Positions 4,567-58,182 of a stretch of 64,000 bases of DNA are shown one piece after another; position 1 is the first letter of the stretch, and each line of letters begins with the position of its first letter. A program made the translations under genes and the position numbers. The DNA lies in contig CAVQGX010000018.1 of assembly GCA_963712115.1 (NCBI GenBank), forward strand, positions 1 through 64,000, read 5' to 3'. Source of the DNA: an uncultured delta proteobacterium. Its GTDB lineage: Bacteria > Desulfobacterota > Syntrophobacteria > BM002. Under the pieces are notes generated by a model. It did no database searches and was not told the DNA's origin. It was given only the letters and a program-made list of their open reading frames with translations.

Positions 4567-5439
4567 GTGCAACAGTTGAGACTAGGCGTGCCCAAGGGCA
4601 GCCTTCAGGACGCTACTATAAGTTTATTTCAAAAATCCGGATGGCGAATTTCACTCAGCTCTCGCAATTACTTTCCGGAGATCAATGATTCCACAATAAA
4701 TTGTTCCATTTGCCGGGCTCAAGAAATGTCACGCTATGTAGAGAGTGGCACCTTCGATGTAGGGCTAACTGGAAAGGACTGGATACTAGAAAACGGTTCC
4801 CAGGTAAAAGTGGTTGCGGATTTAGTCTATTCCAAGGTGAGTCAAAGACCGACTCGATGGGTACTGGCAGTTCCCCTGGAGTCAGAAATCAAAGAGCTGG
4901 CCGACTTGGAAGGCAAGAAGATCTCCACGGAACTGACGAACTTCACCCGCAGTTACTTCAAGGAAAAGGGTGTAAATGTAGTGGTGGAATTTTCTTGGGG
5001 TGCGACAGAGGCAAAGGTTATTGACGGGTTATGCGACGCTATTGTTGAGGTCACTGAAACGGGCAGTACTATGCGGGCCAATGGCTTGAGAATAGTCCAT
5101 GAGCTTATGCAGTCCAACACTCAGTTGATTGCCAATTTCGACTCCTGGAAGGACCCATGGAAAAGGGAAAAAATAGAGCAGATTTCCCTTCTTCTAAAAG
5201 GTGCGCTGAAGGCTGAGAATATGGTTGGTCTGAAGATGAATGTGCCTGAAGACAAAGTGGGGGATGTGATGGAAATTCTTCCAAGCCTCAATGCTCCTAC
5301 TGTATCGCACCTCTACCAGAGTAAGTGGTTGGCAATTGAGGTTGTGGTCGACAAGGACCAGGTACGTGAACTCATCCCCGCTCTCTTGAAGCGCGGGGCA
5401 GAGGGTATTATTGAATATCCCCTGCATAAGGTGATCTAG
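4567..5439 (+). CDS. hisG: ATP phosphoribosyltransferase (long form)
   Basis: PKGSL, RAQE, GATE, ETGSTM; GAGGAGG RBS before GTG at 4567. Confidence 0.95.
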
Positions 5440-5698
5440 AAGCAGCTTCAGTGGGCATGGAGCATGGGGCATGGAGTAAAGAGAGATGGGAGGTCGGGCA
5501 AGAGGAGGATTCAAACGCGGAAGTCGGAATGCGGAACGTGGAATTCTTTTCTGTGCTGATGGCCAACGGGCTAAACCGGCAAAACCGGCCAAACTGGCGA
5601 AACGCATTGAACGATTTCAAGAGCCAATATCCCATGACCAAATTTTAGGCACTTTAGTACACTTTAGCTCATTTTAGACATTTAGGTAAATTCTGCCT

Positions 5699-6907
5699 AT
5701 GATTACCAAACGCGCCGAAGAAATAAGGCCTTTTATAGTCATGGATGTGCTCGAGCGTGCCCAGGAGCTCGAAAAGCAGGGGGAGCATGTAATCCATTTG
5801 GAAGTGGGAGAGCCGGATTTCGATACTCCCACCTGTATCCGTGAAGCTGGCGAAAGGGCGCTGAGAGAAGGAAAAACCCGCTACACCCACAGCCTGGGGC
5901 TCCTGGAACTACGAGAGGCCATTTGTGAACAGTACAAAAAAAATTATGGAGTGAAGATTGCTCCAGATCAAATTATTGTTACTTCTGGAACCTCACCTGC
6001 CATGTTGCTGATTTTCGGGGCCTTGCTGGAAGCAGGAGACGAGGTAATCATTTCGGACCCACACTATGCCTGTTATCCCAACTTCATCAGATTTGTCGAG
6101 GGTGTTCCAATCAGGATACCCGTGGCCGAAGAAGATGGTTTCCAATTTAGGCCCGAAGAGATTCGCCGGAAAACAACACCTCGCACCAGGGGGATCTTCA
6201 TTAACTCGCCTGCCAATCCTACCGGAAACCTTTTGTCCCCAGAGCGGATGGCCGAAATTGCCGACCTTGGATCGATGGTTATTTCAGATGAGATCTACCA
6301 TGGCCTGGTTTATGAGGGAGAAGAGCATACAATCCTAGAATACACTGACGAATGTTTCGTCTTGAATGGCTTCTCAAAGCTATATGCCATGACTGGCTGG
6401 CGCCTGGGCTATGTTATTGCACCTCAACGTTTCGTCCGACCGATGCAGAGAATGCAGCAGAATTTTTTCATTTCTGCCAGTGCAATGGCCCAGTGGGCTG
6501 GAGTCGAAGCCCTGAGAAGTAAAGAGGCGGCTGAAGAAGTGGCGCGCATGGTAAGCACCTACGACGAGCGTCGACGCTACATGATCCAGCGACTCAGAAA
6601 AATGGGTTTTGGTATTACCGTTGAACCGACCGGTGCGTTTTATGTTTTGGCCAATGCCAAGAGATTCAGCAGCGACTCTTACCGCTTCGCCTTTGATATT
6701 CTGCACAATGCCAAGGTGGGTGTTACTCCAGGAGTTGATTTCGGCCCGAACGCGGAAGGGTATATCCGGCTTACCTATGCGAACTCTCTAGAGAACATTG
6801 CTGAAGGGATGGACCGGCTAGAGCGTTACTTGGAGAAGCTGCAACCGGCAAGTTCCGCTCAAAGCGCAGAGCGGATATCAGATCACAAAAGAAAAACTGG
6901 CGGTTGA
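5699..6907 (+). CDS. Class I/II PLP-dependent aminotransferase (aspartate aminotransferase-like)
   Basis: GEPDF, NSPANPTG, SDEIY, FSKLYAMTGWRLG. Confidence 0.92.
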   Translation: MITKRAEEIRPFIVMDVLERAQELEKQGEHVIHLEVGEPDFDTPTCIREAGERALREGKTRYTHSLGLLELREAICEQYKKNYGVKIAPDQIIVTSGTSPAMLLIFGALLEAGDEVIISDPHYACYPNFIRFVEGVPIRIPVAEEDGFQFRPEEIRRKTTPRTRGIFINSPANPTGNLLSPERMAEIADLGSMVISDEIYHGLVYEGEEHTILEYTDECFVLNGFSKLYAMTGWRLGYVIAPQRFVRPMQRMQQNFFISASAMAQWAGVEALRSKEAAEEVARMVSTYDERRRYMIQRLRKMGFGITVEPTGAFYVLANAKRFSSDSYRFAFDILHNAKVGVTPGVDFGPNAEGYIRLTYANSLENIAEGMDRLERYLEKLQPASSAQSAERISDHKRKTGG

Positions 6908-7013: not shown

Positions 7014-7604
7014 ATGATAATTCGTTCAGCTAAATTTATATGCAGTGCGGTGACCCCGGAGCACTATCCACCTGCGGACCTGCCGGAAGTGGCCTTTGCC
7101 GGCCGTTCAAATGTGGGGAAATCTTCACTCATCAACAAGATACTAAATCGTAAGAAACTGGTACGTACCAGCAAGACACCTGGCCGCACTCAGCTCCTTA
7201 ATTTTTTTGAGATCAATGAGATTTGCCGCTTTGTTGATTTACCCGGATATGGCTACGCAAAAGTACCTGCTGAAGTGCAAAAGCGCTGGCGACCCATGGT
7301 GGAGACCTATCTTACCAGCAGGTCCAATATGAGGGGAATGGTCCTTCTCCTGGATATTCGCCGGGAACCTTCCAAAGAAGACTTAAACCTCTGGCATTGG
7401 CTCCAGACTATGTCCATAGAGGTCGTAACAGTAACCACCAAGGTTGACAAGCTTTCCAGAAACAAACGGAATAAACAGATCGCTGCTATTGCCAGAACTC
7501 TCGGATGTAAAAAAGAAGAGTTGATTGAGTTTTCCGCCATGACCGGGGAAGGACGCCACGAAATTTGGAGAGAATTGCTCAGACTTCTAGAAACTAAACA
7601 TTAG
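7014..7604 (+). CDS. engB: Ribosome biogenesis GTPase YihA/YsxC
   Basis: GRSNVGKSSLIN, PGRTQ, DLPGYGYAK, TKVDK. Confidence 0.95.
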   Translation: MIIRSAKFICSAVTPEHYPPADLPEVAFAGRSNVGKSSLINKILNRKKLVRTSKTPGRTQLLNFFEINEICRFVDLPGYGYAKVPAEVQKRWRPMVETYLTSRSNMRGMVLLLDIRREPSKEDLNLWHWLQTMSIEVVTVTTKVDKLSRNKRNKQIAAIARTLGCKKEELIEFSAMTGEGRHEIWRELLRLLETKH

Positions 7605-7738
7605 TCATTTCGCATTTCACATTTCTCATTGTTCATTCAAGACTTGGGACTTTGACGCACAGGAAAAATTAATAGTCCATAGATGACAAATGTGAAATGG
7701 CGGATGATAAATGACAAATGACAAATGAGAAATGAAAA

Positions 7739-8188
7739 ATGAGAGCAGTAGTACAAAGGGTGAAAGAAGCCAGTGTGGCTGTGGAAGGCCAGGAGGTGGG
7801 GCGCATCGGCCAAGGCATCCTGGTCCTGCTAGGAGTGGGGCACAAAGACGGACCGGAGGATGCCAAGTACACGGCGGAGAAAGTGGTTCATCTGAGGATA
7901 TTTGCTGATGAACAGGGCAAGATGAATAGATCTCTTCTTGATGTGGATGGCGGCCTGTTGGCTGTATCCCAGTTTACCCTTTGGGGAGACTGCCGCAAGG
8001 GGAGAAGGCCTTCATTTGTGGCCGCCGCTGAGCCTGCCAAGGCCGAAGCATTATATGAAGCTTTTATTGATCATGTCAGGAGTATTGGTGTGACCGTGGC
8101 CTCTGGACGCTTCCAGGAGATGATGGAGGTATCTCTGGTGAATGACGGTCCGGTTACTCTGTTGCTCGATAGCAAGAAGGAGTTTTGA
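7739..8188 (+). CDS. dtd: D-aminoacyl-tRNA deacylase
   Basis: [19 protein letters not shown]. Confidence 0.97.
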
Positions 8189-8194
8189 ACATCA

Positions 8195-8660
8195 GGCATG
8201 GAGCATGGAGCATGGAGCATGGAGAAAGGGGCACGGAGGTGAGAATGGCTAAATTCAGATTTCAGGACTTAAGAATCTGGCAGTTTGCTATTGAGCTTGC
8301 AGACGAACTCTTTGACATCGCCGATGATCTTGAGCGAAGGAAACTCTACCGTTTCGCTGATCAGATAAGAGGTGCAGGAATGTCAATGTCAAACAACATC
8401 TCTGAAGGGTCCGGATCGGATTCCAAGAGGGAGTTCGCGCGATTTCTGAACATAGCGCGAAGATCCACATTTGAAAATGCGAATGTTACCATTCTTCTTG
8501 AGAGACGAGGTCTTCTATCGATAGAGAGATCCAATAAACTTCTGGAGAACCTCGAGCTTCTCTGTCGACAAATTAGCAGTTTCAAGAACACACTTAGATG
8601 AAGGAACAGGGTTTTTCAGCTTTGATTTTACTCCATGCTCCATGCCCCATGCTCCATGCC
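8195..8660. mobile_element. Cassette bounded by inverted (GGAGCAT)n arrays carrying a four-helix-bundle gene
   Basis: 8195-8224 is the reverse complement of 8631-8660 at 29 of 30 positions. Confidence 0.6.
8245..8601 (+). CDS. Four-helix-bundle protein (23S rRNA IVS protein / TIGR02436-like)
   Basis: FQDLRIWQ..DQIRGAGMSMSNNISEGSG..F.RFL.IAR.S.FE signature; GGAGG RBS. Confidence 0.9.
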   Translation: MAKFRFQDLRIWQFAIELADELFDIADDLERRKLYRFADQIRGAGMSMSNNISEGSGSDSKREFARFLNIARRSTFENANVTILLERRGLLSIERSNKLLENLELLCRQISSFKNTLR

Positions 8661-8670
8661 CTGGTAACCA

Positions 8671-9186
8671 ATGTCAATGAATAAGGAAAACGAACCAGAA
8701 CTAAGACTAAGCGAGAATGAATTACCTCCCTGTGGAATAGTGATCGACAGGGAAGGGGACTGGTACTATCGCGAGAGTCCCATGCAGCGCGCTGACATAG
8801 TTTCACACCTCTGCCAGCACCTGCGGAGGGAAGAGTCTAGCGGACTATATATAATTCAGCTGGGCAAACAAAGGTGCTATCTGGAAGTGGAGGACACCCC
8901 TCTGGTTGTAACCAGCGTTTTGCACCAGGAGGAAAGAGAAGAGGACGACCAGGAAGAACTTTTCCTTTCCATAAAGCATCTAAGAACAAAGCAGCCCCTC
9001 AACCCCAAAACTCTCTGGGTGGGCAGAGACAATGTGCTTTACTGTGAAGTTATGGAAGATACAATTCCTGCTCGGTTCCTGCGCCCCGCCTACTATCAGC
9101 TGGCAGAGTTCATCCATGAAGACAAAGAAAAGCATCGCTTTTACCTTTTACTAGGAGGGAAGCGCTATTACATTGGCCGAAAGTGA
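8671..9186 (+). CDS. DUF1285-like protein
   Basis: IDREGDWYY..YLEVEDTPLVV..ARFLRPAYYQL pattern. Confidence 0.7.
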   Translation: MSMNKENEPELRLSENELPPCGIVIDREGDWYYRESPMQRADIVSHLCQHLRREESSGLYIIQLGKQRCYLEVEDTPLVVTSVLHQEEREEDDQEELFLSIKHLRTKQPLNPKTLWVGRDNVLYCEVMEDTIPARFLRPAYYQLAEFIHEDKEKHRFYLLLGGKRYYIGRK

Positions 9187-9194
9187 GTTGTTCA

Positions 9195-9421
9195 TAGCCC
9201 GGATATTTCATGAATCACTTGCTGCGATCACGGATATGGCCGTCCTTCTCTCCGAGCTGTAGGCTCTACGAGCCGGAGGCCGAGCGTCCTCGGGTGTCGG
9301 CCCCTGCGGCGTACCATTCAGGTACGCCTCGAGACCAATCCCGCGGTACCGCGGGACGGTTGCCCGGAGGCACGCCCATCTTCGTGATCTCGTGACAGCA
9401 ATTCATGCAACATCCAGGCTA
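9195..9421. mobile_element. MITE-like repeat with terminal inverted repeats (copy 1, with a 32-nt nested insert)
   Basis: TAGCCCGGATATTTCATGAAT...ATTCATGCAACATCCAGGCTA; inverted homolog at 55464-55658. Confidence 0.7.
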
Positions 9422-9432
9422 GGAGACTTTGG

Positions 9433-10389
9433 ATGAAAACCGGGAAAAAGTTGTCAGCAAGTGTGATCCTGTTGTTCTTTGTCATTTTGAGCCATTCTAG
9501 TTTCCCTGTCTGGGCCCAATCTTTCAGCCGTCTCAATCTCGATCCTCACCGAGTGCTCTGGAGTGATCTTTCCTTTAGTGCCAGAGGGACTGTTGTGGAC
9601 GTGGCGGTTGACATTCGGCTGTCTCCCTTTCCCTCAGCTGAGTTCCAATCAATGTGGCAAACCTACCCCCAGTCCATTCCACTGCCATCAGTGGGCCAAG
9701 AAGTGTATAAGCTCGAGGTCAATAGGGTCATAGATCACATCTTCAGTCGAGCTGTAAAGTTATCCGATCAGGTTTTGTTTAATCCCGATCAAGCAAACTC
9801 CCTATACGGGCTTCGATTGCGTCGCGGCAAGGATGATATCGAGAGAGCCTATTGGTTCAGTGGGGAAGGAGTCCATCGGTTGCGGAGAATGCCCAAAACC
9901 AAGGGTGAGACTTCACTTGATCCGGCAAAATGGACAGATGTCAAGACTAGCTTCTATCCCTACGATCTGACTCGCCTAGAGTGCCCGCAAGTAGTCGATC
10001 CTATGCTTCTTATATATCTTGTGTCCGCCGCTCCATTCAACAAAGACGGCGAGGTTTTATCCCTGTGCGCATTCGGAAAACAACAGTTGCATCAAGTGCG
10101 GCTAAGGGTTCAAGGATTGCAGACTCTTGAGGTTGATTATTCGGAGAAAGCCGGTGAGGGTGAGGTGCGGAAAAAGGGTAAGGTGGATGGACTGAGGATA
10201 ACACTCGAGTCCGAGCCAATGCTAGAGGATAAAAAAAATGCGGAGAACTTCTCCTTTCTCGGAATGCACGAGGACATAGCTATCCATATCGATCCAGAGT
10301 TGCGCATACCTCTCCAGGTCAGCGGAAGAATCCCCACCGTTGGAGCCGTGACCTTGAAACTAGGTGAAGTAAAAATGAGAGGGCAGTAG
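9433..10389 (+). CDS. Secreted hypothetical protein (possibly DUF3108-like)
   Basis: N-terminal signal peptide; beta-rich pattern; long ORF with RBS. Confidence 0.65.
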   Translation: MKTGKKLSASVILLFFVILSHSSFPVWAQSFSRLNLDPHRVLWSDLSFSARGTVVDVAVDIRLSPFPSAEFQSMWQTYPQSIPLPSVGQEVYKLEVNRVIDHIFSRAVKLSDQVLFNPDQANSLYGLRLRRGKDDIERAYWFSGEGVHRLRRMPKTKGETSLDPAKWTDVKTSFYPYDLTRLECPQVVDPMLLIYLVSAAPFNKDGEVLSLCAFGKQQLHQVRLRVQGLQTLEVDYSEKAGEGEVRKKGKVDGLRITLESEPMLEDKKNAENFSFLGMHEDIAIHIDPELRIPLQVSGRIPTVGAVTLKLGEVKMRGQ

Positions 10390-19258: not shown

Positions 19259-19318
19259 GACGCAAAGCGCATGGCGCATAGCGAAATGCCAGCAGGCAGC
19301 TAGCAGCCGGCAGGCAAA

Positions 19319-19378
19319 GAGTCACTTGCCTCCGGCGTCATTAGGTCACTACGCTCCGCTGTCATTTGTTGTAAGAGG
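19319..19378. repeat. 60-bp dispersed repeat (other copies 43083-43142, 51021-51080, inverted 55283-55342)
   Basis: GAGTCACTTGCCTTCGGCGTCATTAGGTCACTACGCTCCGCTGTCATT..TTGTAA. Confidence 0.9.
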
Positions 19379-19536
19379 TGGAAGCCAGAGGTCAGAAGTC
19401 GGAGGCCGGAAGTCAGAGGTCACCTGTAAATTTCGAATTGCGAATTTTTTAGCTGACAGCTGATCGCTGAGAGCTGAAAGCTAATCTCAACGGGCTAAAC
19501 CGGCAAGACTGGCTAAACTAATTGAGAGATTCTCGT

Positions 19537-19561
19537 GTAGGAGCGGCTTTCCAGCCGCGAT
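19537..19561. repeat. GTAG-type REP palindrome
   Basis: GTAGGAGCGGCTTTCCAGCCGCGAT; interrupted copy at 10460-10501. Confidence 0.7.
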
Positions 19562-19659
19562 CTAACGGTTTCAACGACTTGAACGATTTGAACGATTTGA
19601 ACGATTTGAACGACCAGGCATTTTAGACACTTTAGTTCAAACTTTAGGCATTTGTTCGC

Positions 19660-20997
19660 ATGGAAAACCTAGTCAACGAACTTTTCACCAAATTTAGACT
19701 CTTTCAGCAAATAGGTTACGTTCCCACGGCTGCAGTGGTGATGCTCGCTTGCGCTCTTGTGGTACTGAATTTCTTTGGGCTCATGTCGGGGCTTTATACC
19801 TTTCTGGAAAGAAAGGTTGCGGCCTGGACCAACTCCCGCAGAGGCCCAAACCGGGTGGGGCCTTACGGCCTGGTGCAATTTATGGCTGATGGGGTAAAGC
19901 TCATCCTCAAAGAGGATATCATCCCCGCCGCTGCCGACCGGAATATTTTCAAGTTCGCCCCCTACTTACTCCTGCTGGGCACCGCCCTATCTTTCGTGGT
20001 GATCCCTTTTGGGCCGAAATGGATAATCAGCGACCTAAATATAGGAGTGTTATACCTGCTGGCCACGGGCTCCTTCACTGTGATTGGTCTGATCCTGGCG
20101 GGCTGGGCCTCCAACAACAAATATGCCCTTCTGGGCGGTATGCGCTCAGCCGCCCAGATTGTGAGTTACGAGATTCCCAACGCCCTGGCGATTTTGGTGG
20201 TGGTACTAGCAACCGGTAGCATGAGTATGCAGTCCATTATTGGGGCACAAGCCGGCGGCTTACACCACTGGTTTCTTTTTAGCAGCCCTTTCAGCTTTCT
20301 GGCCTTCTTCATCTATTTTATCTCGGCTATTGCCGAGATTAACCGGGTGCCCTTTGACATTCCCGAAGCAGAGTCAGAGCTTGTAGCCGGCTATAACATT
20401 GAATACAGCGCCATGCGGTTCGGTGTTTTTTTTGCGGCCGAGTTCGGCAACATCTACGTCGTCAGCGCGGTAGCGGTGACCTGTTTCCTCGGGGGCTGGC
20501 AACTGCCGCTACCAGTCGAGGTGGATGAACTGGGGCCAGTGGGTGATGCTCTGGGTCATTTCCTTGGCCGTTCTGATATTTTGATGCTTTTGCTGCTGGC
20601 AGCGTTGCCAGCCACCTATCTTGCCTGGAAGGCGTTGCGGGCCTTTGTTTGGGATGTCCGCCGCAAACGTACCTTTTTTGGCAGTCGGTTCGTGCGTTTT
20701 CAATCTGAACTGTTAATTCTGGGGCTTATTTTCGCCGGCGGTGGCTTGACCTTGGCTCTGCACCTGCCACTTAGAGGTCAACTTCCCACGATTTATCGCT
20801 TGATATTTCAATATATTGTGCCCTTTCTGGTCTTTTTTACCAAGGCCATGCTGATTTCTTTCGTAGTCCTCTGGTGGCGCTGGACCCTGCCGAGGCTTCG
20901 GGTGGATCAGTTGATGGGGGTGTGCTGGAAGTATCTCATCCCATTGGGATTCTTCTGTCTTGTGGGACAGGGTTTCTGGCTGTGGCTTTTGAGCTAA
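19660..20997 (+). CDS. nuoH: NADH-quinone oxidoreductase subunit H (with insertion)
   Basis: ERKV..RRGPNRVG, SNNKYALLG.MR, R.PFDIPEAESELVAG, PRLRVDQLM. Confidence 0.95.
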   Translation: MENLVNELFTKFRLFQQIGYVPTAAVVMLACALVVLNFFGLMSGLYTFLERKVAAWTNSRRGPNRVGPYGLVQFMADGVKLILKEDIIPAAADRNIFKFAPYLLLLGTALSFVVIPFGPKWIISDLNIGVLYLLATGSFTVIGLILAGWASNNKYALLGGMRSAAQIVSYEIPNALAILVVVLATGSMSMQSIIGAQAGGLHHWFLFSSPFSFLAFFIYFISAIAEINRVPFDIPEAESELVAGYNIEYSAMRFGVFFAAEFGNIYVVSAVAVTCFLGGWQLPLPVEVDELGPVGDALGHFLGRSDILMLLLLAALPATYLAWKALRAFVWDVRRKRTFFGSRFVRFQSELLILGLIFAGGGLTLALHLPLRGQLPTIYRLIFQYIVPFLVFFTKAMLISFVVLWWRWTLPRLRVDQLMGVCWKYLIPLGFFCLVGQGFWLWLLS

Positions 20998-26383: not shown

Positions 26384-26562
26384 AGAGCAGGCAGCTGCCA
26401 GCAGGCAGCAAGGAGAACTCAGAGGTCAGAGATCAGATGTCAGAGGTCGGGGGGATAGCTGATCTCTGATCTCCGACTTCTGACCTCTGTGATGGACGAC
26501 TTCAACGACTTGAACGGCTTTAACGATTTCGACGAATCCGTGACAAAGGGGAAAGCAAGATA

Positions 26563-36051: not shown

Positions 36052-36207
36052 CTTTTCTCCTTCTTATGGTGAGATCAAATTTGTCTGCTAATCGTAATTG
36101 ATATAGCTATGGCGGACAACCCACGATCCTGCCCTATCTTGAACTTTTAATCGCTGCCAATTAAGCTTTCTATTATATTAATGCGATTTATCTGGAGGGA
36201 CCGGCGG

Positions 36208-37398
36208 ATGAAAACAAAAGAGAGGTGGTCATATTCCGGGGAGGAAATGGTCAAGGCCCGTTTTGTCTCGAGACCAAACCGTTTTTTGGTGCAGTGCGAG
36301 GCGGAACATCACAATAGAATCAGAGCCTTCCTGCCAAATCCCGGCCGGCTTTGGGAACTCCTCTTGCCTGGCGCCACCCTTTATTTGCGGCGGGATGAAG
36401 GGATTGATGGGAGGCTCAGTACACGCAAAACCCAGCATACAGTCCTTGCCGTGGAGCGTGATGGACGGCCGATCTTTCTTCACACCCACGAGACAAATTC
36501 CGTAGCCCAATATCTTCTGGAAAATGCGCTGATTCCACCTCTGGAAGGATCAAGTATCGTTCAAGCCGAAGTACCAGTGGGGAGGAGCCGTTTTGATTTT
36601 CTTCTCAGTCACAAGGGCAAAGAACTCTATTTGGAAGTGAAATCCTGCACCCTTTTCGGAAACGGGGTGGCAATGTTCCCAGACGCGGTGACGGCCCGGG
36701 GGAAGAGACATATTCTGGAACTTGCAGAGATGAGTCGGAAGGGGATAAGAGTTTCAGTTTTGTTTATTGTGCATCATCCGAATGTTCAATGGTTCATGCC
36801 GGATTATCACACAGATCTCGATTTCAGCACTGCTATGCTTCAGTGTCAAGGAGATGTCCAATTTATACCAGCAGCCATCGGCTGGAACAAAGACCTGTCG
36901 CTGGATATTAGCCAAACGAAGATTTTAAAAATTCCGTGGAACTATTTGAAAAGGGAGGTCAAAGACAGGGGAAGCTATCTACTAATCGTAAAACTGGCAA
37001 AGAGAACTGCAATAAAGGCAGGCTGCTTGCCTGAAAGTTTTTTTCCAGCCGGATACTATGTCTATGTGGGATCGGCTATGAGCGGGCTCTCATCCCGCCT
37101 GGCAAGACACCGTCGCAAGAACAAGAAGATTCATTGGCACATCGACTATCTCACCGCCGAAGCCGGTCATGTTCTGCCCGTTCCGATCCGCTCGTCTAAG
37201 AGACAGGAGTGCGAAATCGCCGGAGCCTTGTCCTCGATTAGGCAAGCTGGTCAGACAGGATTTGGATCATCAGACTGTGAGTGCGTAACTCACCTTTTCT
37301 TCAGCCCAACTAATCCTCTCGAAAGCGAAGATTTTCATCAGTTACTGCAAAACTTCCGAATGAGAGCGCCTTCGGGTCGCACAGCGCAAAGAGCATAG
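36208..37398 (+). CDS. sfsA: SfsA nuclease fused to a DUF123/GIY-YIG domain
   Basis: RPNRF, NPGRL.EL, SRFDF, EVKSCTL, FPDAVT.RG.RH; then G.Y.YVGSA..RL.RH..HWHIDYL..FGSSDC.C..HL. Confidence 0.9.
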   Translation: MKTKERWSYSGEEMVKARFVSRPNRFLVQCEAEHHNRIRAFLPNPGRLWELLLPGATLYLRRDEGIDGRLSTRKTQHTVLAVERDGRPIFLHTHETNSVAQYLLENALIPPLEGSSIVQAEVPVGRSRFDFLLSHKGKELYLEVKSCTLFGNGVAMFPDAVTARGKRHILELAEMSRKGIRVSVLFIVHHPNVQWFMPDYHTDLDFSTAMLQCQGDVQFIPAAIGWNKDLSLDISQTKILKIPWNYLKREVKDRGSYLLIVKLAKRTAIKAGCLPESFFPAGYYVYVGSAMSGLSSRLARHRRKNKKIHWHIDYLTAEAGHVLPVPIRSSKRQECEIAGALSSIRQAGQTGFGSSDCECVTHLFFSPTNPLESEDFHQLLQNFRMRAPSGRTAQRA

Positions 37399-37472
37399 CG
37401 CGAAGCGTTTTAACGTCATTTGCTCCGATTCACTTGCTTTTATTTTCTGTTGACCTCTTAAAGTTAACTTGG

Positions 37473-41048: not shown

Positions 41049-41276
41049 AAACCGGTGGCTTTTATTGGAAAGGTTTCAGTGTTCAGGTTTCAGATTTTAC
41101 CCTTGATTTTTCTTTTTGCTGACACCTGAAACCTGACACCTGAAACCCTGAGATTTGGTGTTTGGAATTTGATATTTTGCAATTCTCCACTACTCCAATA
41201 CTCCATTGCTCCAATAAGTAATTTCTTTGCTCAGTATGCTACACTCGCTCTGAATTTATGAAGGCTACAAGAAACT

Positions 41277-42854: not shown

Positions 42855-43177
42855 TGCATTTCATATTTAACGTTTACTTGCAATCGCTTCGCTCTGAACT
42901 ATCCTCAGAGTGCTCTGGCCATCTTCGAAGGACTCTACTCCAATTTTGAATAATAACATTATCCCCAGAGAGTTCATACCAATTCCTGTAGGAGCAAGCT
43001 GTGCGTGCCACGACGCAGAGCGCATTGCGCTGCGAGACGAGACTTTCAGCCGGCAGCTTACAACGGGCAGCTGGCAGGCAAAGAGTCACTTGCCTTCGGC
43101 GTCATTAGGTCACTACGCTCCGCTGTCATTTATTGTAAAAGGTTGAAGCCAGAGGTCAGAAGTCGGAGGTCGGAAGA

Positions 43178-43413
43178 CAGAGGGCAGCAGGTCACTAGGC
43201 ACTAAGGACTAGGCACTAAACACCAAATTATATAAGAATTCAGGAGTCAGAATCCAGAATCCAGCAGGGAGAAACATAAAGAGTGTTCTTCCATTTTGGC
43301 TACTGGCTCCTGACGCCTGGCTCCTTGAGCTTTAAGACTTGAACGACTTAAAAGACTTAAAAGACTTAAAAGATTTCCTTTGACCTATGAGCTTTCAGCT
43401 GTGAGCTGATTTG
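43178..43413. repeat. About 230-bp composite repeat; inverted copy at 55036-55261
   Basis: Near-identical; differs by one AAAAGACTT unit and one A. Confidence 0.92.
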
Positions 43414-44490: not shown

Positions 44491-44765
44491 GCAGCTTTAT
44501 TCAGTCTCATGACCGCACAATTATTTATCTTAGGTGGGCCTTCAAAATTCTAAATCCTAAGCACGAAGCACGAAACAAATTCAAAATACCAATTCTTCAA
44601 TGTTCAAAATAAAATTGAACAAATAGACTCATCCTCGGTTTTGGTCCTTTGAATTTGGTGAATTCGAATTTGTTTCGGATTTCGATATTCGGATTTCGGA
44701 TTTCTATTGGTCTAATATTTTTATGCTGCCCGGCATAGGTCTTTTTGGGAATAGATGATTTGCCT

Positions 44766-45705: not shown

Positions 45706-48700
45706 ATGAAAAATGATAACTGCATCAGGATAATAGGTGCAAAACAGAATAATCTAAAAAATCTGAGCCTGGACCTTCCCCGGGGACAACTTATCGCCGT
45801 TACTGGTGTGAGTGGCTCCGGCAAGTCAAGCCTGGCCTTGGAAACTCTTTATGCTGAGGGTCAACGGCGCTATGTTGAAACCTTCTCGCCCTATGCCCGC
45901 CAGTTCCTGGACAGACTTGACAGACCTCAGGTGGAGGCCATTATTGGCATCCCTCCAGCCATAGCCATAGAGCAAGGAAACCGCATCAAAAGTTCCCGTT
46001 CCACTGTGGGCACAATAACGGAACTTGCAGACCATCTCAAATTGCTCTTTGCCCGAACCGGAGTGCTCCATTGTGGGCAATGCGCCAGACCTGTTCATCA
46101 GGATAGCCTTGAGAACATTTGGTCCTCACTATCAAACGTCCCAGCAGAAACCCCGGCTCTGATAACTTTTCCATTGGAAAAGGAGGGTCGAACCATTGAG
46201 GATATTCGTCTCTATTTGTGGCGTCATGGGTTCCGTCGTCTTTGGCACCAGGGAAAAATACTTAACCTGGATGAACAGTCGATTCCTAATGACGAGCATC
46301 TTGATGTGTTGGTGGATAGAACTGTCTGGAGTCCGGAGAATAGAAAGCGGGTTTTTGACTCGATGGAGCAGGCCTACCATTTCGGCGAGGGTAAGCTCAA
46401 GGTAGTATTCCCCCCTGAGGTCGAGTATCAATTCTCAGCCACATACCATTGTGCTTTCTGTGACATTAGCTATCCTGCCCCCTCATCCCATCTCTTTTCC
46501 TTTAACAGTCCCTTGGGTGCCTGCGAGACCTGTCGAGGCTTCGGCCGAATTATCGATGTGGACCTCGATTTGGTGATACCAGACAAAAACTTGTCCTTGA
46601 AAAAGGGTGCAATCAAGCCGTGGTCCACAGGGCGGATGGAATACTATGATCTTATGGATTTCTGCACCGCGTTGGGAATCCCCACAGATATGCCCTTTAA
46701 CAAACTGTCACCAGGCCAGCAGGAGGCAGTAATAGAAGAAAGTGACGAATTCTACGGAGTCCGCGGCTTCTTTCGCTGGCTCGAAACCAAGACTTACAAG
46801 ATGCACGTTCGGGTTTTTCTTTCCCGCTACCGGGCCTATCTCACCTGTCCAGCCTGCGGAGGGAGTCGTTTTCAGCCTCTCACTCTGCTTTATCGGGTAG
46901 GTGATATGAACATTTCCGAAGTCAACCAGATTTCCATTACTCGGGCGCTGGTTTTTTTTAGACAGGTTGCCGGGACAATCAAGGCTGACCCTGCGTCTGC
47001 CTTGGTGTGCAGAGAGATCATTGCCCGTCTTACTTATTTGTCGGAAGTGGGGCTCGGCTATTTGAGTATGGATAGATCATCTCGTAGCCTTTCCGGAGGT
47101 GAGGTTCAGCGGGTCCACTTAACCCGTGCGCTGGGTTCACCGCTGGTCAATACTCTCTATGTGTTAGATGAGCCCAGTGTGGGTTTGCATCCCCGGGACA
47201 ACCAGAGACTGATAAACATCCTTAGGGCTCTCACACGCCAGCACAACACAGTAGTGGTAGTGGAGCACGACCCAGAGATCATTCGCGCCAGCGACTACCT
47301 CGTAGATCTGGGCCCGGGAGCAGGAGAGCGGGGCGGGGAGGCAGTATTTGCTGGACCCAGCGCTGATGTGGCTTCCGCCGAAAACTCTAGAACTGCTTTG
47401 TATCTCACTGGCCGCAGTCGCATCTCCCGACCAGGCAAAAGAAGAAAACCTCGTTCAGACCGTTGGTTGAATTTACTGGGCATAAAAACGCATAACCTCC
47501 AAAACCTTGATGTGCGCATTCCTTTGGGGCTTATGGTTGCTGTAACCGGAGTGTCCGGTTCCGGGAAAAGCACCTTAGTAGAAGAGGTACTCTATCGCAA
47601 CTGGCTTCGGGCCAAGGGGCTTGCCACTGACCCCCCTGGTTACTGTCGGAAGATAGAGGGTTGGAAGCATATCAACGATGTGGTGCTCATTGATCAGCAG
47701 CCCATTGGAAGATCTCCCCGGGCCAATCTGCTTACTTACACCGGAGCTTTGACCCCCATAAGGGATTTGTTTGCCAGGACGGATTTGGCAAAGCTGAGGA
47801 AATACGGTCCCGGTCATTTCTCCTTCAATGTGCCGGGTGGTCGCTGTGAGGCCTGTGCCGGCCAGGGATCCGAGAAAGTTGAGATGCAGTTTCTGGCTGA
47901 TGTTTATTTGGAATGTGGAGTGTGTAAAGGGAGCCGTTTCCGGGAAGAAATCCTGGAGGTGAGCTACCGGGGTTTTTCAATTGGACAGGTTTTGGGACTG
48001 ACCCTAAATGAAGCCATGGACCTCTTTGCAGATGAGCCGCGAGTCTTACGTGCTCTCTCCTTCCTGATTGGAGTGGGATTGGATTATCTGCGATTGGGAC
48101 AGCCCATCAGTACACTTTCGGGCGGTGAGAGTCAACGCTTGAAGCTTGCCCGCTCCCTGCAAGTAAAGGGTGACAAAAATACCCTAATCATCCTGGATGA
48201 ACCAACCACAGGGCTCCATGCTGATGACACCAAGTTGCTGGTGAAGACCTTGAATCGTCTTGTTGATGGAGGGAGCACAATTGTGGTGGTGGAACATAAT
48301 CTGGACGTAGTCCAATCTGTGGACCATGTAATTGACCTCGGCCCGGAAGGAGGAGATGAAGGAGGTAAGGTAGTCGCTGCAGGCACGCCAGAGGAAATCA
48401 GCAAGTCTTCAAAATCCCATACGGGCCGTTTTCTTGCCAAATACTGGGAGTCCACTGAAGAGGTCGTTGCCACCGGCAAGTTGCCCCAAAGCACTGATGA
48501 CCATGAGTTAGTGATGATCCGTGGCGCTCGGGAACATAATTTGAGAAATCTAAACCTGGATCTGCCCCGCGAGCAGCTAGTGGTAATTACCGGTGTGTCC
48601 GGGTCGGGCAAATCAACCCTGGCATTCAACGTCCTATTTGCCGAGGGCCAGCGCCGCTATTTGGATAGTCTTTCGACCTTTGCCAGGCAATATCTACCTA

Positions 48701-51003
48701 TTCTGGATCGGCCTGAGGCCGAGGAGATAAGCGGAGTGCCCCCAACTGTGGCCATTGATCAACGGAGCAGTCAAATGGGGCCTCGCTCCACTGTGGCAAC
48801 TATAACTGAGATCTATCACTACCTTCGCCTTCTGTTCAGCAAGGTAGGAGAGCCACACTGCCCAACCTGCGGTGACGGTATTAGCGCTATGAGCCCGGAA
48901 CAAATAACCCGAGACATGCGCCAAAAATTCAAAAGTAAGAATTTAATATTGCTTGCCCCCAAAATAATTGGTCGCAAGGGGTTTCACCGCCAGATCCTGG
49001 AGCGAGCTGTGGTTCAAGGCTATGACCAGGCCCGCATAGACGGCCAGTTATTATCTCTAGATCCTATTCCGAAGTTGAGACGATTTCAGGAACACGATGT
49101 GGAGATAGTCATTCGCAGGTGGCAAAGGCTTTTAAAGAAAAACGATATTCAACTCGCAGAGGCAGTGGACGAAGCCCTGGCTGTGGGCGATGGGCAAGTG
49201 GTCGCCTGGGGTGGTAACGGAAGAGAGGTGTTCTACAGCCGTCGTTTGACCTGCGGTCGTTGCCACCTCGGAATGCCTAGCCTCGATCCCCGGCTGTTCT
49301 CATTCAACAGCAGGCATGGCGCCTGCGAGGGTTGCGAAGGTGTCGGCCGATCGAGAGGTTCCGGGGATGAATCGGTCTGTATGGTATGCAATGGCTCTAG
49401 ATTGAACCAAACGGCTTTGAGCGTCAGGATTGGGGGTTTGAATATATGGGAAGTCTGTGCTCACTCTGTGTCAGCCGCCCGCGAGCTTTTCCTTTCTTGG
49501 CAGTTTGCCGGCCGAGAGGCTAAGATTGCCCAACCTCTTATTGATGAGATTCTCAACCGTCTCCATTTCCTCGAACAGGTAGGTCTAGGCTATCTGCACT
49601 TGGAGCGCAGTGCAGATACTCTGTCGGGTGGTGAAGCACAGAGGATCAGGTTAGCGGCTCAAATGGGGTCTAATCTGCGTGGCGTCTGCTACATTCTAGA
49701 TGAACCTACTGTTGGCCTTCATCCTCGTGACAATGAAAAGCTTTTGGAAACGCTCACTGAACTAAAGCGGAAAGGCAACACAATTGTAGTCGTCGAGCAC
49801 GATGAGGAGACGATCAGGAGGGCAGATCACCTCATTGATTTAGGTCCAGGTGCCGGGCAACACGGGGGTAATTTGGTTGCCAGTGGCACCCTGGCGGATT
49901 TGCAAAGAACACCTCAGTCAGTCACCGGCAGTTACCTGAATGGGGACGGTCGGAGGCGGTTAACTTCCAGGGAGAGGAAACCACCCTCAGGCAACTGGCT
50001 CAAACTGCACGGGGCTCGGGCGCGCAATCTTAAAAATATAGATGTTTTCTTGCCCCTGGGAACCTTTAGCTGCGTTACCGGCGTATCAGGGTCCGGTAAG
50101 TCCACTCTAGTGGAAGAAACACTGTACAAGGCCCTGGCCACCAAATTAAACAAATCCGATATTCAACCGGGGTCTCACCAAGATTTGCTTGGTTGGGAGA
50201 ACCTGGACCGGGTAATGAAGGTGGATCACAGTCCCATTGGTCGGACACCTCGCTCTGTGCCGGCTACCTACGTGGGGGTTTTAACTGAGATACGGCGGCT
50301 TTTTGCTTTAACCCCCGAAGCACGAGCCAGAGGTTACGGGCCGGGTCGGTTTTCATTCAACCTAGCCACTGGAAGATGCCAGAATTGCAAGGGTCAGGGG
50401 CAAGTTAGGGTAGAAATGGCCTTTTTGCCCGATGTCTATGTTAAGTGTGAGCAGTGTGGTGGTCACCGTTACAATAGTGAAACTCTGGCAGTACGGTACA
50501 AGGGAAAGAACATAGCAGAAGTTCTAGGGATGACCCTGGAAGAAGGAGCGGATTTTTTTGGGGCAGTAGGCAAGATTCAGCGCTCACTGCAATTGCTTGT
50601 TGATCTAGGCTTGGGATACCTTGGCATGGGGCAACCCAGTCCTACACTCTCCGGTGGTGAGGCTCAGAGACTGAAGTTAGCAAACGAACTCGCCACCAAC
50701 CACAAGGCCCGGATCCTCTATATCTTGGATGAACCCACCACCGGCCTTCACATTGCTGATGTAGAAAAGCTGGTAAAGGTATTGCAGGCACTGGTTGATC
50801 GAGGTCACACCCTAGTGGTGATCGAGCACAACTTGGAAGTAATAAAAGAGGCTGATTACATTATCGACCTTGGCCCTGAGGGGGGTGATGGAGGAGGAGA
50901 AGTTGTGGCGTCCGGCTCGCCCGTGGAGCTGTTGAACAAAACAGAGAGATCATACACAGCGCGTTACCTTAAAGCATATCTTCAAGGCAGTAATGGCGCA
51001 TAA
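45706..51003 (+). CDS. uvrA: Excinuclease ABC subunit A, tandem double-length form
   Basis: Four TGVSGSGKS Walker A and four LSGGE motifs; EGQRRY twice; zinc fingers. Confidence 0.96.
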   Translation: MKNDNCIRIIGAKQNNLKNLSLDLPRGQLIAVTGVSGSGKSSLALETLYAEGQRRYVETFSPYARQFLDRLDRPQVEAIIGIPPAIAIEQGNRIKSSRSTVGTITELADHLKLLFARTGVLHCGQCARPVHQDSLENIWSSLSNVPAETPALITFPLEKEGRTIEDIRLYLWRHGFRRLWHQGKILNLDEQSIPNDEHLDVLVDRTVWSPENRKRVFDSMEQAYHFGEGKLKVVFPPEVEYQFSATYHCAFCDISYPAPSSHLFSFNSPLGACETCRGFGRIIDVDLDLVIPDKNLSLKKGAIKPWSTGRMEYYDLMDFCTALGIPTDMPFNKLSPGQQEAVIEESDEFYGVRGFFRWLETKTYKMHVRVFLSRYRAYLTCPACGGSRFQPLTLLYRVGDMNISEVNQISITRALVFFRQVAGTIKADPASALVCREIIARLTYLSEVGLGYLSMDRSSRSLSGGEVQRVHLTRALGSPLVNTLYVLDEPSVGLHPRDNQRLINILRALTRQHNTVVVVEHDPEIIRASDYLVDLGPGAGERGGEAVFAGPSADVASAENSRTALYLTGRSRISRPGKRRKPRSDRWLNLLGIKTHNLQNLDVRIPLGLMVAVTGVSGSGKSTLVEEVLYRNWLRAKGLATDPPGYCRKIEGWKHINDVVLIDQQPIGRSPRANLLTYTGALTPIRDLFARTDLAKLRKYGPGHFSFNVPGGRCEACAGQGSEKVEMQFLADVYLECGVCKGSRFREEILEVSYRGFSIGQVLGLTLNEAMDLFADEPRVLRALSFLIGVGLDYLRLGQPISTLSGGESQRLKLARSLQVKGDKNTLIILDEPTTGLHADDTKLLVKTLNRLVDGGSTIVVVEHNLDVVQSVDHVIDLGPEGGDEGGKVVAAGTPEEISKSSKSHTGRFLAKYWESTEEVVATGKLPQSTDDHELVMIRGAREHNLRNLNLDLPREQLVVITGVSGSGKSTLAFNVLFAEGQRRYLDSLSTFARQYLPILDRPEAEEISGVPPTVAIDQRSSQMGPRSTVATITEIYHYLRLLFSKVGEPHCPTCGDGISAMSPEQITRDMRQKFKSKNLILLAPKIIGRKGFHRQILERAVVQGYDQARIDGQLLSLDPIPKLRRFQEHDVEIVIRRWQRLLKKNDIQLAEAVDEALAVGDGQVVAWGGNGREVFYSRRLTCGRCHLGMPSLDPRLFSFNSRHGACEGCEGVGRSRGSGDESVCMVCNGSRLNQTALSVRIGGLNIWEVCAHSVSAARELFLSWQFAGREAKIAQPLIDEILNRLHFLEQVGLGYLHLERSADTLSGGEAQRIRLAAQMGSNLRGVCYILDEPTVGLHPRDNEKLLETLTELKRKGNTIVVVEHDEETIRRADHLIDLGPGAGQHGGNLVASGTLADLQRTPQSVTGSYLNGDGRRRLTSRERKPPSGNWLKLHGARARNLKNIDVFLPLGTFSCVTGVSGSGKSTLVEETLYKALATKLNKSDIQPGSHQDLLGWENLDRVMKVDHSPIGRTPRSVPATYVGVLTEIRRLFALTPEARARGYGPGRFSFNLATGRCQNCKGQGQVRVEMAFLPDVYVKCEQCGGHRYNSETLAVRYKGKNIAEVLGMTLEEGADFFGAVGKIQRSLQLLVDLGLGYLGMGQPSPTLSGGEAQRLKLANELATNHKARILYILDEPTTGLHIADVEKLVKVLQALVDRGHTLVVIEHNLEVIKEADYIIDLGPEGGDGGGEVVASGSPVELLNKTERSYTARYLKAYLQGSNGA

Positions 51004-51680: not shown

Positions 51681-52229
51681 GATCTCAACCAGTTATCTGT
51701 AATTGCAGGGTTGAACTTTCATTGTTGCCTAAACTTCTACGCAAAGCACACAAATCACTCAATCAATGTTTGAGTCTCACAACAGCCTGTGGAATAAAGG
51801 TTTTTTCGTTAAGCAAGAGGATCAGCAGGAGCGGGAGGGAGAGAGATCCAGCCAGATCCGTGATCGCAGTAGGCCATTTATGAAACGTCCGGGCTATGGC
51901 TAATTTACTAGATGGTGGGGTCAAGGATCAAGAAAAATCAGAGGACAGAAGACAGAAGTCGGAGGTCGGAAGTCAGAGGACAGAAGACAGAATTTCGGAT
52001 TGCGGATTTGGGATATGGGATGTGAGATATGAGATTTGGGATTGCGGATTTTTATCTGATCGCTGACGGCTGAATAGAACCGGCAAAACTGGCTAAACAG
52101 GCCAAACGAATTGTGAGGTTTGAACGATCGAATGACTAATGATAAACATTTATGATAGAATCGCGCTGCTTCGAGACAAGGAAGCATCCGGGCTAGAATC
52201 GATCAAGTAAACAAGGATAATAGTTAGAT

Positions 52230-54163: not shown

Positions 54164-54525
54164 CTCCTGGGCTCAACTATTTTGTGCGTCTTCAAGTTAA
54201 TTACACGACTTCACCAGATTTGACAAGTCTTGCCCTCAGAGCCAAATTCGCTTGGCACTTCTGTTTATTGTTGAGTTTTTCCGACATGCACGTCTCATAC
54301 CACCTATATCGCATAGAGCATGGCGCATAGCGTCAATTAGTAGCATCGTTGAAGCCGTTGAAGTGGATGAAATCGTTCAAGTCGTTCGAATCGGTGCTGG
54401 AGGCCTCTCCCAGAGGAAAATCTCACACTTAGTTTGGCCGGTTTAGCCCGGTTGCCAGGTAGCACAGACAAGAATTCCACGTTCCGCGTTCCGACTTCCG
54501 CGTTTAAATCCTCGTCTCGCCTTAT

Positions 54526-58102: not shown

Positions 58103-58182
58103 CAGGTCATAACCAGCTTCGTTCGCTATTGTGTTCTCACTTGTGTTCTCACTTGTGTTCCTAATTTTCACAGGTCATAACC
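58103..58182. repeat. Direct repeats upstream of the integrase
   Basis: TTGTGTTCTCAC about 2.7 copies (58129-58160) between two CAGGTCATAACC (58103, 58171). Confidence 0.8.

Follow-up and report, generated by a model that had tools for sequence, protein, structure and literature searches.

The window examined here is a stretch of 64,000 nucleotides (nt) of contig CAVQGX010000018.1 (positions 1 to 64,000), derived from an uncultured delta proteobacterium. The element in question is a cassette composed of a small gene of the PF05635 family, which is enclosed by two inverted arrays (arms) of tandem heptamers and located directly downstream of dtd. The cassette and the genes on either side of it comprise the following features:

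7739-8188, + strand: dtd, encoding D-aminoacyl-tRNA deacylase, the upstream host gene (PF02580, E 1.6e-59; TIGR00256)
8195-8224, + strand: left arm, four tandem heptamers GCATGGA of the class GCA[T/A/G][A/G]G[N]; sequence GGCATGGAGCATGGAGCATGGAGCATGGAG
8235-8242, + strand: ribosome-binding site (RBS) GGAGGTGA, read from the sequence, 2 nt before the ATG
8245-8601, + strand: the family gene, 118 amino acids (aa), with profile matches to PF05635 and TIGR02436
8631-8660, - strand: right arm, four heptamers, whose reverse complement agrees with the left arm at 29 of 30 positions (one mismatch)
8671-9186, + strand: the downstream host gene, an open reading frame (ORF) of 171 aa with a weak DUF1285_N match below the cut-off, conserved in the syntenic relative L001

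Between the arms there is nothing but the RBS and the 118-aa ORF. The left arm starts 7 nt after the dtd stop codon and the right arm ends 10 nt before the next ORF; the spacer between the two host genes is therefore the cassette itself (8195-8660), which accounts for 466 of its 482 nt. The cassette, dtd and the downstream ORF are all co-directional. Both arms are intergenic tandem repeats of at least three 7-nt units, since Tandem Repeats Finder (TRF) reports 4.1 copies of GCATGGA (100% matches) for the left arm and 4.1 copies of CTCCATG for the right. The two arms rank first among the 25 inverted pairs of the 64-kb window (33 nt, 94%, 400 nt apart). The two-unit 14-mer, with up to two mismatches allowed, occurs nine times in the window compared to 0.66 expected, a number reached in none of 100 shuffles.

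A promoter and terminator scan of positions 7500-9300 revealed no promoter-like site between dtd and the ATG of the family gene, and no terminator-like site anywhere in this region. The likely source of transcription of the cassette is read-through from dtd. Pfam analysis of the 74 window ORFs of at least 60 aa identified no transposase near the cassette and no second PF05635 member, the sole recombinase pieces being integrase fragments at 57009-57851. No rRNA was found in 7500-9300 by Rfam, whose only match was a sub-threshold microRNA on a neighbouring hairpin. The element is thus not inserted in a 23S rRNA helix; it lies between dtd and a protein gene. The first-pass annotation had described inverted arms around only an RBS and a 118-aa gene, between dtd and the next gene and with no transposase, and both the sequence and the Pfam search bear this out.

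The encoded protein has PF05635 as its sole Pfam match (E 2.4e-25; 89.3 bits, cut-off 33.8) and also matches TIGR02436 (E 1.5e-24; 86.3 bits, cut-off 24), a family described as including multi-copy paralogs. An AlphaFold2 model (predicted local distance difference test score 93.4) contains helices at residues 6-31, 35-56, 61-87 and 93-116. In Foldseek searches the model was found to resemble XCC0516 (2GSC) and BT_0352 (2RLD), with template modelling (TM) scores of 0.82-0.86, and also the Avd protein of a diversity-generating retroelement (DGR; chain 8UB7_B), with a TM score of 0.79 and a sequence identity of 9%. A phmmer search linked the protein directly to 2gsc_A (E 1.5e-8). All three methods place the protein among up-down four-helix bundles of the kind seen in XCC0516 and BT_0352. 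In Pfam, Avd-like proteins fall under PF05635 (PMC10053308).

Structures 2GSC and 2RLD each hold five chains (A-E), and the solved PF05635 relatives have been described as pentamers (Lin 2006, cited in PMC10053308 and PMC4990558). By homology with these relatives, the window protein probably forms a pentameric ring. It is basic, with an isoelectric point (pI) of 9.4, the median over 42 family genes being 9.06. Comparison with the L001 ortholog gave a nonsynonymous rate (dN) of 0.10 and a synonymous rate (dS) of 1.70 (dN/dS ∼0.06); judged by these rates, the protein is functional and under purifying selection. For random pairs the same calculation was limited by saturated synonymous sites, which left usable values for only 3 of 61. 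No match to the PF05635 clade of the window was obtained at E 1e-3 in a collection of 50,697 phage records.

A near-length search returned 2911 homologs of the window protein at E≤1e-5, many of them 70-87% identical and sited on short contigs. A scan of species-representative genomes confirmed 205 relatives, of which the best 80 (62-81% identity) were analyzed. They carry about ten phylum labels: Desulfobacterota-like, Nitrospirota, Ignavibacteriota, Balneolota, Bacteroidota, Planctomycetota (Scalindua), Chloroflexota, Pseudomonadota and Kryptoniota, with further bins titled KSB1 and Aminicenantes; the label "Myxococcota" is the NCBI placement of records titled "Deltaproteobacteria bacterium". 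For each gene, the 200 nt upstream were aligned with the reverse complement of the 200 nt downstream. Arm units were then counted over the full 200-nt flanks with one mismatch per unit allowed.

Arms of at least three units were present on both sides of 63 of the 80 genes, on the left only in 9 and on the right only in 8, and no gene lacked both. Among the 361 control ORFs, drawn from these loci at distances above 500 nt from a family gene, 5 had both arms, 44 had one and 312 had none. The modal arm comprises four units (30/80 left arms and 35/80 right arms). In the 63 two-armed cassettes the upstream unit is G C A [T>A>G] [A>G] G [C>G>A], with its complement downstream. A strict version of the pattern gave 217 arrays in 828 kb; within 200 nt of the 85 family genes, 59 "+" arrays lie upstream and 64 "-" arrays downstream, with only 5 and 3, respectively, in the wrong orientation. 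The unit-based count was adopted because a plain Smith-Waterman comparison of the two flanks separates the main clade only moderately (median score 31 vs 17 for controls; 39 of 83 reaching the control 95th percentile).

The two-armed cassettes have a median length of 489 nt (range 422-638), close to the 466 nt of the window copy, and the gap from left arm to RBS varies between 2 and 154 nt. The two-armed fraction is 37/42 in Desulfobacterota-like genomes, 3/5 in Nitrospirota, 2/4 in Bacteroidota and 0/5 in Balneolota. Other small cargo between arms of the same unit was also considered as a candidate and rejected: the 14 two-armed cases among 489 control ORFs are large host genes lying between hairpins. 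The proposal that gene and arms together form a cassette is thus upheld by its recurrence across phyla, and the contrary finding named in the first-pass annotation, namely that most homologs would lack inverted arms, was clearly not obtained.

The prospect that the layout is a chance repeat or an assembly artefact can be regarded as negligible. Nothing favours it beyond the many homologs on short contigs, and the layout is seen also on contigs of more than 100 kb and on finished plasmids. It recurs in 80 independent assemblies, and in the window itself the 29/30 match, the top rank of the pair and the absence of an equal in 100 shuffles are all contrary to it.

The cassettes tend to be located inside operons. 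The nearest upstream ORF of at least 100 aa is co-directional with the cassette in 70 of 76 loci and the nearest downstream ORF in 63 of 73, with median gaps of 98.5 nt and 76 nt, respectively. Pfam analysis of 149 neighbours (E cut-off 1e-8 for the first 75 and 1e-15 for the remaining 74) revealed functional pairs split by cassettes. These include glycosyltransferases, epimerases, Wzm-Wzt, a histidine kinase and sigma-54 regulator, tandem MacB permeases, parts of glutamate synthase, electron transfer flavoprotein (ETF) and ETF-QO, CcmE-CcmF, an extracytoplasmic function (ECF) sigma factor and kinase, and LexA-like/ImuB/DnaE2 (imuB-dnaE2), and polysaccharide loci are frequent among the sites. 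No transposase, integrase or reverse transcriptase was identified by Pfam among the 149 neighbours. A dtd gene adjoins the cassette in 1 of 80 loci, that of L001. A few small genes were also found next to cassettes, namely PDDEXK_3 (PF13366) in one locus (L034, 5186-5596) and DUF7718 in two (L013, 6410-6826; L074, 1508-1825). PDDEXK_3 "GxxExxY" genes also occur dispersed as small multi-copy inserts.

More distant members of the family were examined in the same manner. This set comprised 27 genes, (i) 17 from the relatives' loci (7 found by tblastn and 10 by the family hidden Markov model) and (ii) 10 plasmid-borne genes from Nostoc, Calothrix, Anabaena, Geminocystis, Stanieria, Aulosira and Riemerella. 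For 20 of the 27, the score of the inverted repeat in the flanks was no lower than the 95th percentile obtained with 120 control ORFs. Here too the arms consist of tandem repeats, of 7-, 8- or 9-mers that differ from the GCATGGA class:

GGGAACA / GGGAARA: L084 and L083
GGGTGTR: L086 and L087
GGCAGAA: L088 and L090
ACAGGTG: L085 (Anabaena sp. 90 plasmid pANA02), 1480-1848, between cas6 and cas4 of a type I-D CRISPR-Cas operon
AGTCAGG: L089
ATCAGCT: L048
TAAGCAG: L050
AGAAATG: L065, gene at 7492-7866
GGTCAGA: L009, gene at 5762-6139
ATTGAAA: L051
8-mer GGTTYAAG: L082 and L003
9-mers: AGTGACTAA in L019 and AACCCAAGT in L003

Related proteins have related units, as in the pairs L083/L084, L086/L087 and L088/L090. 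The unit therefore changes with the protein clade, which is the covariation that the first-pass annotation had suggested looking for. The exceptions are genes with one arm (in L090 and L074) and genes with none (L050-3241, L019-5164, L074-5173 and the fragment L036). Two published cases can be placed beside these. In Xanthomonas campestris, the spacer between bccP and XCC0516 holds a four-unit GGGAATC array that runs into the annotated start of XCC0516 (PMC4692102, supplement file 2, row 27). In the rRNA intervening sequence (IVS) of Coxiella, tandem GACAGAT heptamers, in two or three copies depending on the strain, precede the S23p ORF (PMC4990558).

Two observations were made in passing within this set. 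The L085 cassette between cas6 and cas4 is a further example of insertion within a functional operon. In Scalindua L019, the genes at 9483-9845 and 5164-5475 belong to a more distant four-helix-bundle clade with an ANYREA motif, and inverted 9-mer arrays (AGTGACTAA / CTTTAGTCA) occur there. By comparison with this locus, the abundant 9-mer arrays of the window may have a PF05635-family partner of their own.

These data bear on the simplest alternative, a passive association, in which arrays arise by slippage and a small gene merely inserts into hairpins, or survives in them, without any functional link. The window and L001 are indeed rich in unrelated heptamer and nonamer arrays with a fast turnover, gene-less hairpins are common, and the copy number of the arms drifts between the two (left 4 vs 6, right 4 vs 3). 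What such an association would leave unexplained is that a single unit class flanks one protein clade across about ten phylum labels, with other units around other clades, and that the cassette unit was kept between the window and L001 while the neighbouring spacer arrays were replaced. With both arms at 63/80 genes against 5/361 controls, we consider a passive association very unlikely; the controls already disfavour it.

The comparison with L001 also provides information on the age of the cassette. The two loci share the order hisG, aminotransferase gene, engB-like gene, dtd, cassette, 171-aa gene and 318-aa gene, with flanking proteins 64-89% identical. The L001 cassette keeps the unit GCATGGR, in six left and three right copies compared to four and four in the window; in the hisG-aminotransferase and engB-dtd spacers the two genomes have wholly different arrays. 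Since L001 holds the cassette between dtd and the matching downstream gene, the cassette is, judged by this synteny, old and vertically inherited at the dtd locus, with its arms kept while other spacer repeats turn over. Vertical conservation of the gene at this locus had been listed beforehand as a finding that would speak against a mobile cassette, and it was encountered here, in one syntenic relative.

On a wider scale the history appears to be mixed. A protein tree was built from 78 rows and 118 columns; 6 of 84 rows (L022, L042, L058 twice, L045-3275 and L061) were left out owing to internal stops or odd length, and 39 of the 75 inner branches were not resolved. Phylum labels change 25 times on this tree; the lowest possible number is 9, and shuffled labels gave 31.6 on average. 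The Ignavibacteriota and Balneolota rows cluster, and Nitrospirota, Bacteroidota and Scalindua are dispersed among Desulfobacterota-like rows. The tree indicates vertical descent plus transfers, with no single transfer proven and binning errors possible. Two copies were found within ∼1-3 kb in L045, L053, L056 and L058, and four assemblies give two loci each.

Arrays of the cognate unit also occur without the gene. In the relatives' loci and the window, 84 such arrays lie outside cassettes, and their gene-less adjacent opposite pairs have the polarity of the cassette, with 16 (+,-) pairs against 1 (-,+) and loops of 6-211 nt. In L030, the spacers between tandem MacB paralogs hold, in alternation, an empty hairpin and a cassette. 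The empty hairpin (560-705) can be aligned with its filled counterpart (5905-6445) over the arms and the loop-proximal sequence, and exactly the RBS and gene are missing. In Nostoc punctiforme plasmid pNPUN01 (L087, ∼1780-1970), a 188-nt gene-less hairpin is located inside a family gene that is uninterrupted in the Calothrix ortholog. Its unit, GGGTGTR, is that of the interrupted gene's own arms, and the annotated 140-aa product runs into the insert. No target-site duplication was detected at the L087 or L030 junctions. On the evidence of these two alignments, the gene and the hairpins behave as modules that can part from each other, and hairpins do insert.

The first-pass annotation had interpreted empty arms across the window as footprints of the cassette. 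This did not hold for the window: its gene-less hairpins are built of other units and are therefore not cassette footprints. Gene-less hairpins of the cassette's unit class were found instead in the relatives' loci, with the N. punctiforme insertion as a counterpart of the GGGTGTR unit.

These gene-less copies form the basis of the main rival explanation. By analogy with REPINs (hairpin-forming doublets of repetitive extragenic palindromic, REP, sequences) and RAYTs (REP-associated tyrosine transposases), the protein would be the trans-acting partner of heptamer hairpins; gene-less copies would be non-autonomous and helped by the host or an unnamed enzyme, and RNA processing would be secondary. 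This analogy is supported by the inverted cognate flanks of the gene, the gene-less doublets of the same unit and polarity (84 arrays, 16:1), the de novo insertion of a gene-less hairpin into a gene in N. punctiforme, the differences in unit between clades, and the decay of arms, with the ORF intact, where the gene is fixed. X. campestris has 186 GGGAATC arrays, 70 inverted pairs among them, with one array abutting XCC0516 (PMC4692102), and RAYTs were recognised as the partners of REP sequences by the same logic (PMC3116915).

Other features do not fit this scheme. No catalytic activity is known for the fold, and the protein does not belong to the Y1 (IS200-like) transposases; a nuclease or recombinase motif was not found by Pfam, which reports PF05635 only. 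Copies ∼1 kb apart in L045, L053, L056 and L058 are unlike single-copy RAYTs, and the L087 and L030 junctions lack a target-site duplication. Nor is the element an insertion sequence (IS) or a miniature inverted-repeat transposable element (MITE), as characterised by a transposase in cis or by target-site duplication: none of the 149 neighbours and neither of the two insertion junctions provided one. The analogy to REPIN/RAYT seems to us unlikely as a full account, and it may be complementary to the interpretation set out below.

We then considered the cassette at the RNA level. The RNA of positions 8185-8670 is predicted to fold with 8191-8224 paired to 8631-8666 (minimum free energy, MFE, -170.2 kcal/mol; z -5.14), and none of 100 shuffles was equal. 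In 55 of the 63 two-armed cassettes the predicted MFE structure contains at least 15 arm-arm pairs (median 24), and the arm duplex has a median of -40.6 kcal/mol compared to -16.7 kcal/mol for shuffled arms. In 57 of 63 cassettes the "+" strand gave a better fold than the "-" strand.

Taken with the anatomy and operon placement, these results lead to the following interpretation: the window feature is a resident copy of a widespread PF05635 hairpin cassette, undescribed as a class, that would be of the IVS type, located in mRNA spacers. We regard this interpretation as evenly poised between right and wrong. The cassette would consist of a PF05635 gene with its own RBS and no promoter, in the loop of a hairpin with inverted arms of about four heptamers. 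It would sit in a short spacer between co-directional operon genes and owe its transcription to read-through from the host gene (dtd in the window). On the transcript, the arms would pair into a stem of ∼24-34 bp, which RNase III might cut as it does in rRNA-borne relatives, the 23S rRNA IVSs. Cleavage would free a small mRNA uncoupled from the neighbouring genes, and insertion would thereby become tolerable inside operons, as it is inside rRNA; rRNA-borne IVSs are tolerated because the host rRNA functions in pieces. The basic, probably pentameric ring protein would recognise the heptamers of its own clade, which would account both for the tracking of protein clade by unit and for the accompanying gene-less hairpins. 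Over evolutionary time, cassette and gene-less hairpins would move and cross phyla.

Several observations weigh against this interpretation. The first group concerns the RNA stem. Arm complementarity has a median of just 81%, and no unit-by-unit compensatory pattern was found: at the variable unit positions, the observed complementarity of 222 compares with 243.6 +/- 10.7 when unit order is shuffled, and 97.9% of shuffles reach 222. Arm mismatches are of the A-C type in 69 cases and of the G-U type in 80; since the former are as frequent as the latter, there is no strand-specific RNA signal. Neither of these two tests gave a sign of selection for exact arm pairing. The folding advantage of the "+" strand may be just a matter of coding-strand composition. 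In addition, the Coxiella IVS ORF is apparently untranslated from its native sequence (PMC4990558). The second group concerns arms and mobility. In groups with an apparently vertically fixed gene (Balneolota, Bacteroidota, Nitrospirota), the arms are either weak or confined to one side, while the ORFs there are intact, which suggests that the protein does not need the arms in cis. The L076 gene at 153-512 carries direct, non-inverted arrays. At the dtd locus itself no movement is visible, the only relative with the locus (L001) being filled as well. The mRNA intervening element with an arm stem proposed in the first-pass annotation is thus supported in part, by the predicted pairing in 55/63 cassettes and by a layout and size like those of an IVS, and in part not, since neither compensatory changes nor a G-U asymmetry was found.

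Conservation extends to the unit and its orientation and not to the pairing order of the arms. This points to recognition of the repeated units, most simply by the encoded ring protein. In a further rival explanation the arrays would be DNA operators: an oligomeric protein would bind both arrays on double-stranded DNA and loop its own gene for autoregulation or silencing, the RNA hairpin being incidental. The conserved units with unconserved order and pairing agree with this, as do a modal arm of four units beside relatives with five chains that are described as pentamers, and the basic character of the protein (pI 9.4; median 9.06 in 42 genes). However, the window cassette contains no promoter-like site to regulate, the left arm precedes the RBS at a variable gap (2-154 nt), gene-less hairpins have nothing to regulate, and the rRNA-borne copies are processed as RNA. 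DNA operator arrays are accordingly rated as distinctly unlikely.

A broader form of the hairpin cassette interpretation can be put forward, tentatively and with considerable doubt. Bacterial tandem repeats of heptamers (and of 8-/9-mers) might have their missing partners in the PF05635 proteins, each protein clade having its own unit and its gene inside a hairpin of that unit, perhaps with one ring subunit per unit. In that case the gene-less hairpins and arrays in operon spacers of Desulfobacterota, cyanobacteria, Bacteroidota and Xanthomonas would represent non-autonomous copies that are spread or kept up in trans, in a system resembling REPIN/RAYT with a non-enzymatic, Avd-like binder, and the rRNA IVSs would be copies that landed in rRNA.

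If this is true, three loose ends would meet: the role of PF05635, the origin of ORF-bearing rRNA IVSs, and the bacterial tandem heptamers of cyanobacteria, large sulfur bacteria, Xanthomonas and others. To our knowledge, the "23S rRNA intervening sequence protein" family has thousands of members and two solved structures, and no known role. The rule offered is that a PF05635 family gene predicts the repeat unit beside it. Should the arms be RNase III sites, the cassette would represent a natural way of placing a gene in an operon without polar effects. Tractable carriers exist on Nostoc and Anabaena plasmids.

The window contains numerous other repeats. TRF lists 70 rows, mostly 7- and 9-mers in spacers. 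Outside the cassette, only four arrays, all solo, share its unit; they are given below together with the gene-less hairpins, whose loops measure 12-79 nt and whose units differ from that of the cassette:

5453-5477, + strand: solo array GGCATGGAGCATGGGGCATGGAG, cassette unit, 14 nt past the hisG stop, with no inverted partner; absent from the orthologous L001 spacer
19262-19282, + strand: solo array GCAAAGCGCATGGCGCATAGC, cassette unit class, 3 nt past the nuoD stop
37379-37399, + strand: solo array, cassette unit class, overlapping the 3' end of the SfsA-DUF123 gene
54311-54331, + strand: solo array GCATAGAGCATGGCGCATAGC, cassette unit class, in a mosaic spacer
7599-7744: gene-less hairpin, unit CATTTCN/NGAAATG
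26414-26489: gene-less hairpin, unit GGTCAGA
41072-41147: gene-less hairpin
44545-44703: gene-less hairpin

The units of the hairpins at 7599-7744 and 26414-26489 are the arm units of the distant PF05635 paralogs in L065 and L009, respectively. Several spacers are mosaics of short tandem arrays with a recurring order (5440-5700, 19260-19660 and, in reverse, 54300-54520; also 26386-26535, 43145-43373, 51939-52107 and 55042-55268). In these, (GCAWRGN)x3 right after the upstream stop is followed by GGTCAGA- or AGCTGAN-type heptamers and then by 9- or 10-mers (AACCGGCAA, AACGATTTG, TTTAGACAC) before the next start codon. The nuo operon carries mosaic spacers after nuoD, nuoK and nuoM. The composition of the mosaic spacers is wholly different in the syntenic L001.

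Other regions of the window also deserve mention. At 36181-37398, SfsA (OB and nuclease domains) is fused with DUF123 in one 405-aa ORF, with a GCAWRGN array over its 3' end. The integrase fragments at 57009-57851 (minus strand) represent a tyrosine integrase in two pieces, a catalytic part (57009-57353) and an N-terminal SAM-like part (57558-57851). Beyond it lie ∼6 kb of ORFs without Pfam matches, including one of 961 aa (61086-63968), and together they may constitute a decayed integrated element. Among these ORFs is a perfect 12-mer tandem repeat, TTGTGTTCTCAC x2.7 (58129-58160). Finally, the 1765-aa ORF at 45706-51003 carries duplicated UvrA-type ABC ATPase modules (UvrA_inter x2, UvrA_DNA-bind) and is about twice the normal length of UvrA.

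Features of the cassette can be compared with several known systems. Bacterial tandem heptamers are intergenic, often beside start codons and often in inverted pairs, with a patchy distribution across phyla and no known mechanism (PMC4679880, PMC4692102). TAACTGA heptamers occur in Beggiatoaceae, Cyanobacteria and Bacteroidetes (PMC4679880), and X. campestris is reported to have 186 GGGAATC arrays, including 70 inverted pairs (PMC4692102). PMC4679880 and PMC4692102 name no associated protein and terms for the family are absent from their text, though the array at XCC0516 does appear in a table of PMC4692102. The cyanobacterial tandem heptamers are known as short tandemly repeated repetitive (STRR) sequences. 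No earlier link of PF05635 to flanking heptamer arrays in general, or of IVS-type cassettes to operon spacers, was found in the full text searched (subscription literature and family descriptions excepted). In the literature searched, the Coxiella heptamers are the single published instance of heptamers beside a PF05635 ORF that was found.

The cassette shares with MITEs and integron cassettes its small size, the lack of a transposase and inverted ends, and with the latter a single promoterless ORF expressed from outside. It differs from them in the lack of any observed target-site duplication, of an integrase and of an attC-like single site, and in having tandem-array arms on both sides. The similarity to Avd of DGRs lies in the four-helix-bundle fold (TM 0.79 to 8UB7_B) and the basic character of both proteins. 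However, there is no reverse transcriptase and there are no template/variable repeats near the window gene, the 74 window ORFs and the 149 immediate neighbours being free of reverse transcriptases.

With REPIN/RAYT systems the cassette has in common a gene bracketed by inverted cognate repeats, many dispersed gene-less inverted doublets in spacers, co-variation of repeat type with gene clade, and vertical inheritance plus occasional transfer (PMC3116915). It differs in that the PF05635 protein, without known enzymatic motif, is not a Y1 transposase, in that its repeats are tandem heptamer arrays while those of RAYTs are single palindromes, and in that the PF05635 gene can be multi-copy.

The closest counterpart is the IVS of 23S rRNA, exemplified by that of Coxiella burnetii, which measures 428-444 nt and has a 28-bp stem with one mismatch, an S23p ORF in the loop and RNase III cleavage within the stem (PMC4990558); the Leptospira IVS, cited in the same paper, is a further ORF-bearing example. 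The differences are of four kinds: (i) IVSs are located in helix 45, 25 or 9, whereas the window cassette occupies the operon spacer of protein genes, (ii) the window arms are themselves tandem heptamer arrays, (iii) the window ORF has a strong RBS and the signature of purifying selection, whereas the Coxiella ORF is reported to be probably untranslated (PMC4990558), and (iv) RNase III cutting is known for IVSs, while for the window cassette it is the pairing that is predicted. The likeness nevertheless extends to most of the architecture: a PF05635 ORF in the loop and in sense to the host transcript, terminal inverted repeats forming a stem of ∼28-30 bp with one mismatch, a total length of 428-444 nt in Coxiella and 466 nt in the window, no transposase, and tandem heptamers of variable copy number beside the ORF (PMC4990558).

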